A stretch of DNA of 64,000 nucleotides from Escherichia coli (GTDB lineage: Bacteria > Pseudomonadota > Gammaproteobacteria > Enterobacterales > Enterobacteriaceae), in NCBI RefSeq assembly GCF_003018115.1, contig NZ_CP027457.1. One strand, 5' to 3'. Shown here piece by piece: positions 51,986 through 57,641 of this stretch. Positions within the stretch are counted from its first letter, which is position 1; each line of letters starts with the position of its first letter. The translations under genes and the position numbers were made by a program. The notes under the pieces were generated by a model. It searched no databases and was not told where the DNA came from. It saw only the letters and a program-made list of their open reading frames with translations.

Positions 51986-54457
51986 TTAAAAATCAGCCTG
52001 ACTCGGGATCAGTTTTTGCCAGATGGCTGAAACGTATTTTGCCTGGTAACGCGCATCGTGCAGCGCGTTATGGCGTTCACCTTCGAATGGAATAGTCGTT
52101 CTTGCGTCGAAATCCATCACCAGTCCCAGAGCAACCATCGTTCTTACATCGCGATCATTGGTGTAACGCCACGGGCAGGGGATCCCCTGCCGTTCATATG
52201 AACGGCGTAAAATCACGTTGTCGAAAGTTGCACCGTTACCCCAGACCTGAACAAAAAATTCACCGGAGTTTTCGTCGATAAATTCCCGGAATTGCAGCAG
52301 TGCATCATCCAACGGGATTTCATCGGTCAGAATGGCGGATTGTGCTTCGCGTGACTGTTTCAGCCACCACTTAATGGTGCCCCGATCGATGACCCCGCCT
52401 GCGGTTTCCAGATCGATAGTTTTGCTGAATTCTGGCCCCATCTCTCCGGTTGCCGGATCAAAAAACTTACCGGCTATAGCGTTTATTGGCGCATCAGGAT
52501 TTTTTCCCATTGTTTCAAGGTCAATCATCAGATGGTGCCACAACCTGCTGGTGGATGTGATTTCATGATGACCGTTCACTTTAATTAAGGGATTTGCTGT
52601 CTCGCCAGTTTTATTATCGCTGGCGTGATACTGATCGCTGATAGTGTTCTCCTTGTGCAGATGTTCAGTGCCTTCCATTTCCTCCGGATCATTTTCCTGA
52701 GCTTCAGCCTGATTCTCTTCATCGAATGTTTCCTGGTAGGTTGCGTTCCCCATCACCGCACCACAGTCAGGACAGTTGCCGCCACCGGTCTGACCGCATG
52801 CGGTGCAAACTTTTTCCGGTTCTTGTTGCACTTCTGGTTCAGGCAGTTTCGTTTCTGGCTCGTTTTGTAACGCATTTGGACTGTTTTGTTCCGCTTTCTG
52901 GTCGTTTTGTTCCGATTCGGGCTGGTTCTGGTTCACAGAATCGCGGGTTTCAATCCCCTTAACCCATTTCGGATCATTCGGGTCGCTAATCCCTTCAACA
53001 AATTCACCACGTGATGCAGCAAGCAATTTATCGGTGTCAGGCTGGCTGATATTGGCTGCCTGCATAATTTTGTTTACTTCGTCAGCGGTAACTTTTACCG
53101 GCTCTGGTTGTTCTGAATCTTCTGCGGTATCTGTATTTTGCTGTAAGCCCGTATATGTGCCATTTTTTCGGGCAAAATATTCTTCTTTTGAGATTTCGGT
53201 ACCACCGGCAGCCAGCGCCTTGTCCAGGCCAGAAAGTTTGTTTGCCCTGCCGTATTTTTCCCCGTCCTTATCGGTAAAGACGAAATAAAACGGTCCTTCA
53301 CGCTCTACAGATGGTTCAGCTTCCACCAGGATTTCATTTTTTTGAGAATTGGATTCCGCCGTCTCCACTGGATCAGTTTGTGCTGCTGACGACAGGATAG
53401 CATCAGCAGAGCTCTGGTCTGTTTCTTCATGTTCAAACACGCCCTTTGTCGTCAGGTATTCGCTGATGTATTTGTTCAGTGCAACGGGATCTTTGTGAAT
53501 GTCGATCGGGCGCTCACGAACAAGGCCAAAAATAGTCTGACGGTCATAGCGAAGCGCATCAGGCTGTTTGCGCATTGATGCAGAGATACGCTTCCAGTCT
53601 TCGCGATCCTTGTCGATAACCTCATTTTTAGCCCAGCGATGGATGGTACCGTCAATGTTTCCGGCATCAATATCACCAGGCCAGAGAGCGTAAGCCAGCT
53701 CTTCATCCAGGGTTTTCCATGTCTGCTTGTATTCGCGACGAATGGCAGTAGTGACAGGGTTGATTTTTGCTGCTGAGTTTTCAGTGTGCTGTTGGTTGAC
53801 TCTGGCGCGGGCCAGCTCAACAACAGAAGTATGTTTCCCGGTTTCTTTTCGTTCTGCTTCGCGACGTTTTTTCCAGGTGCGCATCTCTGCCTGAATTTCT
53901 GGCCATTTGGCACCAGGCTTACATTTATGCTTAACCCACCCGATGGCATACAGCTTAAGCTCCGGATACATGGCGTTAACTTCTGGCATTTTCATCAAAG
54001 CTTCCACGATATGTCCGTCGAAGGTTGCCATGTCTTCCTGCAACAATTCCTGTGCGCTAATCACCATATCAACGGTGATGTTTTCACATGTATCGAACTT
54101 AACCATGACAGCGTTCTGTACTTCAGGGGCCAGCTTGTCAAAAGTGACGTTCATCGGATCTGATTCAGGTTCGACCGGGACAAAGGAAGCAGACGCCTCA
54201 TCCCAGCGGTTTTCCAGCATATATTCAGCATCCCAGGAGTCGAGGGCTGGGCGGGGTGTACCGGGTTTATCCTCACAGACAAGAAATTTATAAGCGCAGT
54301 CCTGAGCAGCCGGATAATGTTCAAGGAATTGCCAGTGAAATTTTGCGCGGGCGCGACGTTCATCACCGGCTTCAATGGCTGTGGCCACAGCAACAGCGCC
54401 CTCGTTTTTTATTGCCTGTTCGTCAGGAATGGCGGCGCAAATAAATATTTTACTCAT
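51986..54457 (-). CDS. large phage protein with C-terminal DEDDh (DnaQ-like) 3'-5' exonuclease domain and CxxC-x10-CxxC zinc ribbon
   Basis: 823-aa ORF; Exo I MIDLETMG, Exo II NGATFDNVIL, Exo III HNALHDARY at C-terminus; central acidic low-complexity region; CTACGQTGGGNCPDCG. Confidence 0.8.
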   Translation of the reverse strand: MSKIFICAAIPDEQAIKNEGAVAVATAIEAGDERRARAKFHWQFLEHYPAAQDCAYKFLVCEDKPGTPRPALDSWDAEYMLENRWDEASASFVPVEPESDPMNVTFDKLAPEVQNAVMVKFDTCENITVDMVISAQELLQEDMATFDGHIVEALMKMPEVNAMYPELKLYAIGWVKHKCKPGAKWPEIQAEMRTWKKRREAERKETGKHTSVVELARARVNQQHTENSAAKINPVTTAIRREYKQTWKTLDEELAYALWPGDIDAGNIDGTIHRWAKNEVIDKDREDWKRISASMRKQPDALRYDRQTIFGLVRERPIDIHKDPVALNKYISEYLTTKGVFEHEETDQSSADAILSSAAQTDPVETAESNSQKNEILVEAEPSVEREGPFYFVFTDKDGEKYGRANKLSGLDKALAAGGTEISKEEYFARKNGTYTGLQQNTDTAEDSEQPEPVKVTADEVNKIMQAANISQPDTDKLLAASRGEFVEGISDPNDPKWVKGIETRDSVNQNQPESEQNDQKAEQNSPNALQNEPETKLPEPEVQQEPEKVCTACGQTGGGNCPDCGAVMGNATYQETFDEENQAEAQENDPEEMEGTEHLHKENTISDQYHASDNKTGETANPLIKVNGHHEITSTSRLWHHLMIDLETMGKNPDAPINAIAGKFFDPATGEMGPEFSKTIDLETAGGVIDRGTIKWWLKQSREAQSAILTDEIPLDDALLQFREFIDENSGEFFVQVWGNGATFDNVILRRSYERQGIPCPWRYTNDRDVRTMVALGLVMDFDARTTIPFEGERHNALHDARYQAKYVSAIWQKLIPSQADF

Positions 54458-54552
54458 TGTGTTTAAACCTCATTACAGATTTCAGGGTGAACGAATCCCT
54501 GCCATTGCTGGCATTTTTAATCCGTTGGTATGGCGTTAATATGGCTGGCGGG

Positions 54553-54741
54553 TTATCCAGCCGGTATTTCGTTATTCAGGTACAGCGATACTTTGTTTAA
54601 CGGGAGACATTCACCGGAAATTTTTTGCTCGTCTCTTGCCTGATGGCAGGATTCTTTACTGGCATAAATTCCGGTAATCACTTTCTGTGGCTCACCTGTT
54701 ATCAGAAAAACCGTCATCATCAGTGTAAACGCTGAACTCAC
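54553..54741 (-). CDS. hypothetical small protein with N-terminal signal-like hydrophobic segment
   Basis: 62-aa ORF MSSAFTLMMTVFLITG...; start overlaps upstream ORF stop (ATGA). Confidence 0.45.
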   Translation of the reverse strand: MSSAFTLMMTVFLITGEPQKVITGIYASKESCHQARDEQKISGECLPLNKVSLYLNNEIPAG

Positions 54742-54926
54742 TGCTGCCCTCCGAAAATGCCAAGTTCAAGAAGGGCAATTCTGGAGAGTATGGAATTATC
54801 ATTGAGAAGATAAGGCTCATATTTTCTCATCCTGATGGCGTCCTCAGTAAACTCCCGGTTACTGAGCAGAATACCAATATTAAAACACCCTTCAGACGTA
54901 TTAACGTTTGGTAGTGACGTTTCCAT
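54738..54926 (-). CDS. hypothetical small phage protein
   Basis: 62-aa ORF translationally coupled to 54553..54741. Confidence 0.4.
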   Translation of the reverse strand: METSLPNVNTSEGCFNIGILLSNREFTEDAIRMRKYEPYLLNDNSILSRIALLELGIFGGQQ

Positions 54927-55101
54927 TATCGCGTCCTCAACAATGAATTTTGTGATGTGGTGCCTGGTGCCTCCAGGTGACGTTAACCAGTTAACAATTA
55001 ACGCCGGATTGTTAGTTGATGTCTGTTACGCCAGTAAAAGACCGCTTGTTTTAACTGTTCCGCGTGCGCTTAGCCGCATTCACCGCATCACAAAATACAC
55101 T

Positions 55102-55131
55102 TTAAAAATGGCGGATATCCATTTCCGCCGA
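55102..55131 (-). terminator. putative leftward-strand terminator within prophage early-left region
   Basis: ggcgga..tccgcc / aaatgg..ccattt inverted repeats with adjacent A-run on plus (T-run on minus). Confidence 0.4.
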
Positions 55132-55475
55132 ATCACCAGAAAAGTGATAACAGAGGTTGTTGTGGCGGTGTTGTCACTCAGGCGCATGGTCAACCTGACA
55201 ACCCGGTGCATTTTCTGGAGCAATGGAGGAAGCCCCAGCCATACTTACCGCCGCGCCATTTCGCGGATTGCCACAACCGGAAGCGCACGATCGAATTAAA
55301 TTTAACGACAAGCCTTATATTCTCGCCGTGCGCTTTCGTGTTATGCCCTGACTTTTCAGGGATATGTTCTTTCAGCAAACTGTCAGTGCCGGATTCTTAT
55401 CCGTGTCCGGCGCACGACCACACGTGACAGCGTGTTGGTCTCCATTTTTAACCCAGAACCTCTATGGAGGATAAA

Positions 55476-55778
55476 ATGCACTCTAAATCAAATCGATATT
55501 ATGTTCATGTGCAGTTATTTGAAGCAACAATGGAACAGGAGAAAAAGTTCGAGACTCTGATGCCAAATTTTAAATACTCCAGGATGATTAATGAAGGTGA
55601 CGTTGAATATAAATTGTTGCCAGGGGCATACGTTATTCAGTCAACGCTCAATTCGAATCAAATACTTGAACAAACCTTTTCTGTTGCTAATTCAGTTGGT
55701 GTTAATGCTCACATTTTTGTTTGCCCTTATGATGAAAGTGCAACCCTTTTGCCTTGTGCTGATTTTGGCACTTACTAA
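55476..55778 (+). CDS. hypothetical AT-rich accessory (moron-like) protein
   Basis: ORF 55464..55778; second ATG at 55476 has strong SD (tggaggataaaATG); 100 aa; opposite orientation to the surrounding leftward operon. Confidence 0.55.
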   Translation: MHSKSNRYYVHVQLFEATMEQEKKFETLMPNFKYSRMINEGDVEYKLLPGAYVIQSTLNSNQILEQTFSVANSVGVNAHIFVCPYDESATLLPCADFGTY

Positions 55779-56082
55779 CTAAATTTAATTTATGTTCAAG
55801 TTCGGCTATTTGCATACGTAGTGCTTTAACCATTGTTTCATGATAAATCTCACTCACTCCACCTGGGTGTGGGGTGAATTTAGGTGAATAATCTTTGTTT
55901 TCAGAACTCAGCTTCTCTTCGTACAGCTTGATAAAGGCATTACGCACATTATGGGATATATTGTCGATGGTTTCTTTTTCTACGGTACTCAGGTCAAGAG
56001 TCGCCAGTTGAGAACGAACTATATTCGCTGCCATATCCTGGAATGGTACTGGTAAATCTTTAAATTCCATCGTCAACCTCAT
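55702..56082 (-). CDS. hypothetical phage early-left protein
   Basis: 126-aa ORF whose ATG overlaps stop of the YdaF-like gene; 3' end overlaps the convergent plus-strand ORF by 77 nt. Confidence 0.5.
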   Translation of the reverse strand: MRLTMEFKDLPVPFQDMAANIVRSQLATLDLSTVEKETIDNISHNVRNAFIKLYEEKLSSENKDYSPKFTPHPGGVSEIYHETMVKALRMQIAELEHKLNLVSKCQNQHKAKGLHFHHKGKQKCEH

Positions 56083-56237
56083 CAGTCAGTGTTTCTGGCT
56101 AACCAGCGATGCGCGCCAGCTTCAGTTTTAAACGTTTTGCTTCTGGTATACGTCATCGCGGTAAACGTGCCGTCCTGGTTAGGGAACACACCGCATACCA
56201 GAGATTCGTTGTTGCCAAGATTGAGTGTATCCATGTT
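56082..56237 (-). CDS. YdaF-like small phage protein (first gene of leftward operon)
   Basis: C-terminal 51 aa of ORF 56082..56390 (MDTLNLGNNESLVCGVFPNQDGTFTAMTYTRSKTFKTEAGAHRWLARNTD) recalled as Rac YdaF-like; the upstream part of the ORF overlaps the predicted OL/pL. Confidence 0.5.
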   Translation of the reverse strand, partial: NMDTLNLGNNESLVCGVFPNQDGTFTAMTYTRSKTFKTEAGAHRWLARNTD

Positions 56238-56349
56238 GACCTCATTTGCCCTTAACGCCGGGTAGCGGAACTGTTTGCTGAGAACACCGTGCGGTGTCTT
56301 GATGGATTGTAATTTAGTTTTCTCATGGTGCTTGGTCAAGTGTTTTTGA

Positions 56350-56363
56350 TGAGAAAACTCAAC
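56350..56363. promoter_or_regulatory. putative left operator (OL), gagaaaactcaa motif
   Basis: same 12-nt motif as in the repressor–cro intergenic operator, located just downstream of the repressor gene. Confidence 0.45.
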
Positions 56364-56423
56364 ATTTAATGCAAAACAAAGCCAATACATTGAAATGTAA
56401 GGCTTTAAATTTTGTGAAGGGGG

Positions 56424-56831
56424 TTATTGATGTTTGTTACGTTTGCGAGCTTCTAGTAGCTCGGTGAATAGGCGATTAAAATTCTCAACGCGGGCACGGA
56501 GTTCGCTGATCTGTGCTTGCTGCTCTGATTTTGGAAGTGCGCGATACAATCGCAACATCTCCGACTCATCTTCCGATAAGTCTAAGGCGCTGTTGAGTGC
56601 AACTGGTGGATCTGGTGTTTTATCCTCGTCACCAAACAGTATCCAAGTTGGTGAACATTGCAATACCTCAGCCAGGCGATGCAAATTTTGCCCGCGCGGG
56701 GCTGTATGGTCGCTTTCCCATAGTGAAATTGATGAGCCAGATACACCAGCAGCTTTGCTTAAATCGTTTTGACTTAAACCAACCTGTTTGCGTCTTTCTC
56801 TAATTCGTTGACCTAAAGTTTTCTCGTTCAT
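56424..56831 (-). CDS. DicA-like HTH (XRE family) prophage repressor
   Basis: 135-aa ORF; HTH LSQNDLSKAAGVSGSSISLWE; strong resemblance to DicA incl. VLQCSPTWILFGDEDK and C-terminal RARVENFNRLFTELLEARKR. Confidence 0.88.
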   Translation of the reverse strand: MNEKTLGQRIRERRKQVGLSQNDLSKAAGVSGSSISLWESDHTAPRGQNLHRLAEVLQCSPTWILFGDEDKTPDPPVALNSALDLSEDESEMLRLYRALPKSEQQAQISELRARVENFNRLFTELLEARKRNKHQ

Positions 56832-56849
56832 ATTTAGATATCTTAATAA

Positions 56850-56900
56850 CCCTTGACTTGAGATTCCTTGAGTGATTACTATTGAGAAAACTCAAGCCTG
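56850..56900. promoter_or_regulatory. divergent immunity promoter/operator region (OR)
   Basis: TTGACT -35-like element, cttgag repeats and palindrome ttgag-aaaa-ctcaa (56883..56896) between repressor and cro-like gene. Confidence 0.55.
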
Positions 56901-56908
56901 GAGGGGTG

Positions 56909-57136
56909 ATGTTTAAATCAGACGTAATTAATTTTTATGGGACGAAAGCCAAAGTAGCGAAAGCTGCTGGTGTTGATCCATCTGCTGTTTCTCAATGGGG
57001 GAAACTGGTCCCTGAAGGTCGCGCGATGCGCCTGCAAGAGGCATCCGGCGGGGAGCTTCAGTATGACCCCAAAGTTTATGACGAATATCGTAAGACGAAG
57101 CGGGCGGGGCGGTTGAACAATGAAAATCACCCTTGA
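56909..57136 (+). CDS. Cro/DicC-like regulator
   Basis: ORF 56882..57136, likely starting at MFKSDVINFYG; divergent from repressor; DicC-like (YGTKAKVAKAAGV...VPEGRAMRLQEASGGELQYDPKVYDEY). Confidence 0.75.
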   Translation: MFKSDVINFYGTKAKVAKAAGVDPSAVSQWGKLVPEGRAMRLQEASGGELQYDPKVYDEYRKTKRAGRLNNENHP

Positions 57137-57641
57137 GCAGGCACGCGATGCCCTGGATGCCTGGATAAGCCGACCAGGAATGACGCAGGAGCAGGCGACG
57201 ATATTAATTACTGAAGCCTTCTGGGCTCTACAGGAACGCCCGAACATCGATGTTCAGCGTGTCACGCTTGATGATGGCGGGGTTGATCAGCGTGCGCTTG
57301 GCGTTAACCGGGTGAAGATATTCGAACGCTGGAAGGCTATCGACACCAGGGATAAGCGTGAAAAATTCACGGCGCTGATTCCGGCAATTATGGAGGCTAT
57401 CCGGATTAGTGATTTCAGGTTGTACCGCGAAATTACTGACGGAAAAAGCATTACGTACATGATTGCCGGGTTAAACAAAGAATATGGCGATGTGGTGGAG
57501 TCCGGGCTGCTTTTTGCAGATCCAGCTGTTGTGGAACGTGAGACAGACGAGCTTATAGAAAAAGCAATCGCTTTCAAGCGTGCCTATCGTCACCAGTACC
57601 AACAAAAAGCCGGATGGAATTATGAGCCTTCTTTTTGCTGA
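57120..57641 (+). CDS. YdaT-like protein (cII-position, Rac YdaT family)
   Basis: 173-aa ORF in the position of Rac ydaT; shares the ...ALIPAIMEAI... segment as recalled. Confidence 0.6.
   Translation: MKITLEQARDALDAWISRPGMTQEQATILITEAFWALQERPNIDVQRVTLDDGGVDQRALGVNRVKIFERWKAIDTRDKREKFTALIPAIMEAIRISDFRLYREITDGKSITYMIAGLNKEYGDVVESGLLFADPAVVERETDELIEKAIAFKRAYRHQYQQKAGWNYEPSFC

Follow-up and report, generated by a model that had tools for sequence, protein, structure and literature searches.

A ymfI-ymfJ-type convergent gene cassette in the early-left arm of an Escherichia coli RecE/dicB-type prophage

Pairs of convergent genes whose 3' ends overlap are known from the prophages of Escherichia coli K-12. 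Two of them, ymfI-ymfJ of e14 and sieB-ydaF of Rac, belong to the core convergent excludome of MG1655, i.e., of 58 RNA-seq data sets analysed with ExcludonFinder, 50% or more contain them (PMC12288877). In Rac, the plus-strand gene sieB is flanked by the DUF1391 gene ydaF, with which it shares 4 nt, and by kilR, and the small RNA (sRNA) KilS is located between sieB and kilR. For e14, SOS induction of K-12 raises ymfJ about 30-fold late in the response (log2 4.8) and ymfI weakly (PMC11002266); the gene list of the YmfT iModulon includes ymfJ, ymfH, xisE and intE but leaves out ymfI (PMC12133099); and uninduced K-12 shows ymfI expression, which is reported to fall under several stresses (PMC9501238). 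Taken together, these data indicate that ymfI is regulated apart from the leftward genes. The parts of the literature covered by our search contain no mention of DUF2622 and no characterisation of E. coli ymfI. Here, we analysed a 64,000-nt stretch of E. coli contig NZ_CP027457.1 (the window), which is 100% identical to E. coli 07-4299 (NZ_CP027462.1). It holds a lambdoid (Rac/Sp-like; RecE/dicB-type) prophage integrated beside ompW, and we studied a plus-strand open reading frame (ORF) in the early-left arm of this prophage that is convergent with, and at its 3' end overlaps, a minus-strand gene.

The plus ORF encodes 100 aa and extends from 55476 to 55778 (stop codon 55776-55778). As stated in a preliminary description of the window, it has a strong Shine-Dalgarno sequence and runs against the leftward genes: GGAGGA is read from the sequence at 55466..55471 on the plus strand, with a 4-nt spacer to the ATG at 55476, and its left-arm neighbours (repressor, DUF1391 gene, dicB, DUF1482 gene, exonuclease, xis, int) are all on the minus strand. 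An alternative in-frame ATG at 55464 would yield 104 aa. That description had found no recognisable motif in the protein, a view that has to be replaced. BLASTP aligns the plus protein with e14 YmfI of E. coli K-12 at 56% identity over 91 aa (E 2e-37). Furthermore, it matches the NCBIfam family NF051477, 'YmfI family phage protein', over profile positions 2-89 of 89 (E 8e-32), where its score of 109.6 bits is below the curated equivalog cut-off of 140 bits and places it in a divergent branch of the YmfI family. Its sole match among the PHROGs is phrog_8894 (E 7e-34, positions 2-93 of 94), which is matched by e14 YmfI as well. A Pfam search gave no match for either protein of the pair, for the plus protein not even at E <= 10.

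A word-based protein search yielded 4 clusters for the plus protein. An hmmsearch of 1.84e9 representatives added the distant homologues P0005, P0006, P0009 and P0010 (92-102 aa, identity down to ~33%), and NF051477 takes in all distant homologues plus the window protein. Relative to the distant homologues, the proportion of nonsynonymous differences (pN) of the plus ORF is 0.23-0.5, with the synonymous value (pS) saturated at ~0.8. An in-frame 3-nt indel among the plus-ORF variants is consistent with coding, and three quarters of the ORF (55476-55701) lie outside any minus-strand gene. Judged by this conservation, the plus ORF encodes a genuine YmfI-family protein and is under selection. RefSeq annotation by the Prokaryotic Genome Annotation Pipeline (PGAP) has no call for it in the identical record, i.e., it is missing in both L001 (6177-6479) and L002, while the overlapping 122-aa ORF is kept; the likely cause is the overlap with the longer ORF together with the sub-threshold NCBIfam score. 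The DNA of the plus ORF is carried by 64 out of 5,426 complete E. coli genomes, and a further 563 E. coli genomes match 55440-55480 only, i.e., 40 nt ending at the start codon. We also observed frame-shifted or truncated ymfI-like alleles (P0004, P0007, P0008); given their presence in some genomes, at least some lineages can do without the gene.

For the fold of the plus protein, we used AlphaFold2 with a 13-sequence alignment as input. The resulting model has a mean predicted local distance difference test (pLDDT) score of 84.3, a predicted template modelling score (pTM) of 0.73 and the topology b-a-b-b-b-a-b, with residues 91-100 disordered. When searched with Foldseek against AFDB50, nearly all of the ranks 5-50 are DUF2622/GhoS proteins (TM 0.70-0.76). 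In addition, the Pfam family GhoS (PF11080) is matched by 1/13 members of the YmfI family at 1.3e-6 (P0010) and by 2 at <= 0.1. A profile search of the plus protein against the sequences of the PDB gave no match. According to the model, the YmfI fold is that of GhoS/DUF2622, i.e., ferredoxin/Cas2-like, and we file the plus protein under this fold superfamily and not as a type V antitoxin. An alternative-frame ORF at 55591-55782 (63 aa, hydrophobic tail) was considered as a GhoT-like peptide and rejected: it is interrupted by stops in L003, L011, L016, L018, L019 and e14.

The convergent partner on the minus strand is annotated by PGAP as WP_001365839.1. Its ORF is open to 56082, where the first ATG gives the 126 aa (55702-56082) of the preliminary description; PGAP and all homologues use the ATG at 56070, resulting in 122 aa (MEFKDLP...; 55702..56070). 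Two parts of different origin can be distinguished. The N-terminal 50-70 residues match PHROGs of differing lengths (6937, 1363, 9419 and 2151). BLASTP aligns residues 65-95 with the YmfJ C-terminus at 47% identity (E 4e-8), and residues 75-100 match positions 70-95 of the YmfJ family phrog_12693 (E 0.001). The YmfJ likeness is limited to residues 65-100, i.e., it does not extend over the full length. By BLASTP and locus comparison, the YmfJ C-terminal module (residues 65-95, FTPHPGGVSEIYHETMVKALRMQIAELEHKL) is located at 55786..55878 on the minus strand. These matches mark the minus gene as a real early-left gene and a chimera, in which an N-terminal domain of Rac/Sp-like prophages is joined to a YmfJ C-terminal module (last ~35 conserved residues). 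N-terminal modularity over 40-60 residues is also seen in other small early-left proteins: residues 1-42 of YmfJ (L021 5780-6085) match three other PHROGs, and the N-terminus of the window's minus protein (55932-56070) matches five. Recombination breakpoints thus seem to recur inside these genes.

Next, we compared the pair with YmfI-like loci found in an IMG/VR scan (n=43). In 43/43 loci, the ymfI-like gene is convergent with, and overlaps by 14-77 nt, a minus gene ending in the YmfJ C-module, which follows the pattern ...V(S/D/N)x(V/I)(Y/F)H(D/E)T(M/L)(V/I)K(A/C)L(R/K)... The N-termini of these minus proteins are of at least four unrelated types. The YmfJ module is found beside ymfI also in e14, L003, L008 and L011. 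Respective limits are given by blastn: homology to an O157 prophage ends at 55479 and restarts at 55932, while homology to L011 is confined to 55496-55877. Given these limits and the pairing in the 43 loci, ymfI and the YmfJ C-module form one AT-rich unit of ~400-450 bp that is swapped between backbones. In the window, the blastn limits, the 563 genomes whose match stops at the ATG and the GC content delimit this exchangeable cassette to 55480..55931, i.e., ymfI and the 3' two-thirds of the minus gene. The AT-richness noted in the preliminary description is borne out, with 35-37% GC across 55500-55900 compared to 45-52% on the flanks (plus ORF ~36%).

What the slot can hold instead is illustrated by the E. 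coli O157:H7 prophage (L009). There, the same slot has an identical 5' region, Shine-Dalgarno sequence and ATG, after which an unrelated 69-aa plus gene follows (3037-3246; phrog_4274). It is abutted by a minus protein of 212 aa (3247-3885) that has its first ~46 residues in common with the window protein and an unrelated C-terminal part of 150 residues. That is, the slot accepts alternative two-part cassettes. An NCBIfam search gave no match for the minus protein, the O157 pair or YmfJ.

The two genes of the window overlap by 77 nt (55702..55778), as stated in the preliminary description, which covers plus residues 76-100 and minus residues 99-122. This length varies among relatives, from 14 nt (L008/L027) through 22 nt (Edwardsiella) and 63-72 nt (e14-type loci) to 90 nt (L003), and is not conserved. 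Within the overlap, the plus residues are conserved (including strand beta4), while the minus residues are mostly an unconserved tail. This tail (last 21-24 codons) is cut by a nonsense change in L008/L027, with a stop after ...LVSKC, 21 codons earlier, and it is frame-shifted in L003-L005, where the plus frame stays conserved. In e14-type loci, the overlapping tail is a 21-aa extension of YmfI instead. The conserved cores do not reach each other: with the end of the YmfI core at 55760 and that of the YmfJ module at 55786, the gap between them is 25 nt in the window, and it is 30 nt in e14. With cores 25-30 nt apart and no terminator in between, an ORF without an early stop runs into the other one. 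We thus read the 77-nt coding overlap, on the basis of the compared loci, as a by-product of tight convergent packing and not as a selected feature.

With regard to transcription, a sequence scan found no terminator-like site between the convergent genes and no terminator downstream of the plus gene. The nearest one on the minus strand is an intrinsic-terminator-like hairpin between the cassette and dicB (55110..55129), which reads GGCGGAAATGGATATCCGCC followed by ATTTTTAAAG from 55129 to 55110. The sequence arrangement is therefore that of an excludon, i.e., convergent genes with no intervening terminator, such that the transcripts of the plus and minus genes would have to overlap. Since the hairpin lies beyond the cassette, the pL transcript is expected to cross the whole plus gene in antisense before ending or reading on to dicB. 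Of the inverse antisense coupling proposed in the preliminary description, the coupling as such is plausible from the K-12 excludons (PMC12288877), while a role of the 77-nt coding overlap in it is not upheld, given its unconserved tail.

Upstream of the plus gene, an imperfect hairpin or inverted repeat is found at 55416..55440 on the plus strand (GACCACACG-TGACAG-CGTGTTGGTC), located 36 nt 5' of the ATG, with a T-run behind it. A related repeat, ACCAC-N10-GTGGT, is found upstream of e14-type ymfI and of Rac sieB (L010 ~7575-7605). In L003-L005, the hairpin is inverted as a whole (L003 ~5945-5970), i.e., its sequence is the exact reverse complement (ACACGCTGTCACGTGT vs. ACACGTGACAGCGTGT) within collinear flanks. 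In front of e14-type ymfI, a block of ~75 nt (TGCCTGTCTTTTCACCACTTCAGGCTCGGTGGTATGCTGGAGTTCTCACACAGCCAGCAAGGAAAcCTAATG) is near-invariant in ~35 loci, e.g., L021 5425-5497 (e14) and L028-L064 ~2925-3000, with unrelated DNA further upstream. Here, the ACCAC-N10-GTGGT repeat overlaps an extended -10-like TGGTATGCT (conserved TGnTATGCT element), such that the block could be an operator-controlled promoter for the slot. Near the window gene, the sole plus-strand promoter match was rejected, as its -10 hexamer coincides with the start codon.

We consider it fairly probable that the locus is a ymfI-ymfJ-type convergent cassette in an accessory slot between the immediate-early-left genes and dicB, with an excludon and an RNA- or partner-directed role. 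By analogy to the K-12 RNA-seq data on homologous pairs, the plus and minus transcripts would overlap and interfere as an excludon. The ymfI-like RNA would be made in the lysogen while pL is repressed, and after induction, transcription from pL would pass across ymfI in antisense and shut it off. YmfI itself may be a small GhoS-like protein that is RNA-directed or partner-binding, with a target tied to the YmfJ module or to the leftward transcript; given the GhoS fold and the YmfJ-module linkage, such a role tied to the leftward arm is the most economical guess. As the weakest step, YmfI might help to keep toxic leftward genes quiet in the lysogen.

Several observations weigh against this account. 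The window plus protein itself has no match to Pfam GhoS (PF11080) at E <= 10. An hhalign comparison of the YmfI alignment with a shallow, E. coli-only GhoS alignment is marginal (E 0.05, probability 1%), and its register (RLRSLM vs. KFETLM) puts Arg28 of GhoS, reported as its key catalytic residue (PMC4010927), opposite Glu26. In the same marginal register, the YmfI family has His in this column in P0009 and P0010 and Lys in P0067, and Arg28 appears not to be conserved in the plus protein. A tblastn search of the whole window with GhoT and GhoS-GhoT fusions gave nothing below E 1, i.e., no GhoT-like ORF. With regard to the gene, dN/dS, the ratio of nonsynonymous to synonymous substitution rates, is 0.4-0.85 for the plus ORF vs. 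its closest variants (L003, L008; 7-25 substitutions), which is the same as in control frames and thus uninformative, and a frame-shifted ymfI-like allele exists in E. coli (P0004, 84 aa). A consensus scan revealed no consensus sigma-70 promoter upstream of the plus gene in this lineage, and the sequence 5' of it is unlike the block conserved in front of e14-type ymfI. The distant YmfI-like genes of L016/17, L018 and L019 are without a YmfJ-module partner. Finally, no member of the YmfI family was found by tblastn (E <= 1e-3) in 50,697 sequenced phage genomes (INPHARED). Integrated prophages, in contrast, often carry it (43 IMG/VR loci, K-12 e14), and the family seems confined to elements rarely isolated as virions.

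An exclusion or defence function in the lysogen, as proposed in the preliminary description, would make YmfI a guard against superinfecting phages, similar to SieB. Slot and orientation are indeed those of Rac sieB (phrog_6399), the cassette is AT-rich and exchangeable, other prophages carry different plus-strand genes behind the same Shine-Dalgarno sequence and ATG, and ymfI is expressed in uninduced K-12 and reduced under several stresses (PMC9501238). However, neither the plus nor the minus protein matches a defence-system model of PADLOC, the plus protein showed no likeness to SieB in sequence or fold and is without membrane segments, and our scan revealed neither a promoter nor a terminator belonging to the gene. 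The obligatory YmfJ-module linkage is likewise unexpected for a stand-alone moron, and we regard this function as unlikely. Of the moron-type insert, what stands is that an AT-rich accessory gene with its own orientation lies in the early-left arm. Its joint travel with the C-module of the minus gene does not fit a solo insert, and our scan found no consensus promoter for it in this lineage. A match to a known lambdoid core gene, which the preliminary description took to speak against its view, comes close: YmfI is a known gene, but an accessory and not a core one.

Alternatively, the pair might act as a type V-like toxin-antitoxin system, in which YmfI is an active GhoS-type endoribonuclease that cleaves a toxic leftward mRNA (that of the YmfJ-module protein or dicB/kil). 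This is suggested by GhoS being the best structural match of YmfI, by the tie of ymfI to the YmfJ module in all IMG/VR loci as well as e14, L003, L008 and L011, by the movement of both as one unit, and by the toxic division inhibitors encoded downstream. Yet GhoS Arg28 is not conserved in the sole available (marginal) register, the window has no GhoT-like membrane peptide, and the gene order is convergent while ghoST is co-transcribed: downstream of the plus gene lies the antisense of the YmfJ-like gene and not a co-transcribed ghoT. Moreover, YmfJ protein accumulates after SOS induction of K-12 and is not described there as toxic (PMC11002266), and the distant YmfI-like genes occur without the module. 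We therefore judge an active antitoxin to be improbable. A bolder form generalises it to the whole YmfI family as GhoS-type RNA-cleaving or RNA-binding antitoxin-like factors. Here, the ~400-bp cassette would be a portable convergent type V-like module that secures lysogeny by destroying leaky early-left mRNA (kil/dicB, xis, int), has the YmfJ C-module or the leftward transcript as its partner, and is turned off by antisense when pL fires; we deem it quite unlikely.

The role of the plus strand could also be one at the RNA level, with its transcription hindering leaky pL read-through to dicB, xis and int, either as a roadblock or as an antisense brake, and the protein as secondary. Such a brake would fit the lack of a terminator between the convergent genes in our scan, the position of the minus-strand terminator beyond the cassette (55110-55129), the K-12 excludon data (PMC12288877) and the presence of unrelated ORFs (sieB, the 69-aa gene, ymfI) in the same slot and orientation. 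Nevertheless, the plus protein is under clear purifying selection and is predicted to fold confidently, and a brake would not keep a 92-aa core down to 33% identity, which renders it very unlikely. Last, a spurious plus ORF, i.e., an antisense frame kept open by constraint on the minus gene, is contradicted by the data and has next to no probability: the missing RefSeq annotation, a dN/dS of ~0.8 between the two closest lineages and the mere 4 clusters of the word-based search would agree with it, but three quarters of its length (55476-55701) are outside any minus-strand gene, the L016/L017 and L019 homologues have no overlapping minus-strand gene, pN is far below pS at depth, the high-confidence predicted fold has a specific structural family, and the alternative frame is not conserved.

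The surrounding left arm is arranged as follows. On the minus strand, the gene order is integrase, excisionase, RecE-type exonuclease, DUF1482 gene, dicB, a ~775-nt gap, the 122-aa gene, the DUF1391 gene and a helix-turn-helix (HTH) repressor; past the repressor, the plus strand continues with cro/YdaT/replication genes. The DUF1391 (YdaF/YdfA-like) gene at 56082..56234 is by annotation and PHROG matches the first of the early-left transcript; the surroundings further include the HTH prophage repressor at 56424..56831 and, downstream in the leftward operon, dicB (kil-type division inhibitor) at 54738..54926 (all minus strand). In L003, ParE/PaaA2 is inserted between the DUF1391 gene and the repressor region. 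Elsewhere in the same prophage (window ~60758-62450; L001 11459-13151), we observe an ORF6N-domain gene, hokD and a pair of HTH and RelE/ParE genes.

The ~775 nt between dicB and the 122-aa gene are without annotated feature. On the minus strand, the region 54894-55330 shows partial homology to the KilS sRNA region of Rac, and the terminator region matches the 3' end of KilS. An Rfam scan of 53000-58000 had STnc100 as its sole match (54894-55111), which is sub-threshold (33 bits vs. 47), and no DicF was reported. Judged by this homology, a 3'-derived sRNA resembling KilS is probably encoded in the gap that separates the cassette from dicB. Another hairpin is present at 55346-55361 (CCCTGA-CTTT-TCAGGG; minus-strand reading GCCCTGAAAAGTCAGGGC), located on the pL transcript 5' of the 55110-55129 terminator. 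In the scan, its only flag is that of a terminator-like site on the plus strand. In the minus-strand reading, it resembles lambda boxB (GCCCTGAAAAAGGGC).

The architecture of the pair is already present in K-12 prophages and catalogued as an excludon, and in this respect the finding is largely ordinary. Two points appear to be new. The first is that YmfI can be assigned to the GhoS/DUF2622 superfamily, which would provide a y-gene with a structural assignment, based on the predicted model. The second is that ymfI is almost always linked with the YmfJ C-module. Furthermore, a conserved real gene is missing from the RefSeq annotation of at least two records, with the same DNA in 64/5,426 complete E. 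coli genomes. Judged by the linkage and by the slot shared by sieB and the O157 69-aa gene, Rac/e14-type prophages appear to keep a conserved position for control or accessory genes where the early-left arm begins, beside toxic division inhibitors. Should YmfI act on leftward RNA, type V-like control would have a second example, one that is carried by prophages.

Finally, we compared the locus with the known systems to which it is most closely related. As in lambdoid morons, the window gene is atypical in composition, opposite in orientation and exchangeable between related prophages; unlike them, it showed no recognisable promoter/terminator pair of its own in our scan, and a portion of the adjacent operon gene is exchanged along with it. 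GhoS (YjdK; type V GhoT/GhoS; PF11080/DUF2622) is the best-matching family in AFDB for the plus protein, and both are of ~95-100 aa, acidic and have a ..LM.. helix-1 motif in common. In contrast to GhoS, the plus protein, which is ~12% identical, is without a Pfam match and apparently has Glu in place of Arg28, and its gene is prophage-borne, without downstream ghoT and convergent with its neighbour, while ghoST is a two-gene operon. Rac sieB-ydaF occupies the same slot, from the DUF1391 gene to a kil-type gene, on the opposite strand with overlapping 3' ends and a related upstream inverted repeat, but SieB (162 aa; phrog_6399) is unrelated to the plus protein, and its exclusion phenotype is known. 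With regard to e14 ymfI-ymfJ of K-12, the differences concern the N-terminal 46-64 residues of the window's minus protein, which are unrelated to YmfJ and common to Rac/Sp-like prophage proteins, the lack of the e14-type conserved 5' block, the lack of the 21-aa C-terminal tail of YmfI, such that the overlapping tail belongs to the minus ORF, and the backbone, i.e., a RecE/dicB prophage at ompW compared to e14 at icd. What both share is a homologous plus gene of the same PHROG and NCBIfam family, the same minus C-terminal module, and a convergent arrangement directly downstream of the repressor (ymfK in e14), with overlapping 3' ends (63 nt in e14) and no terminator in between.

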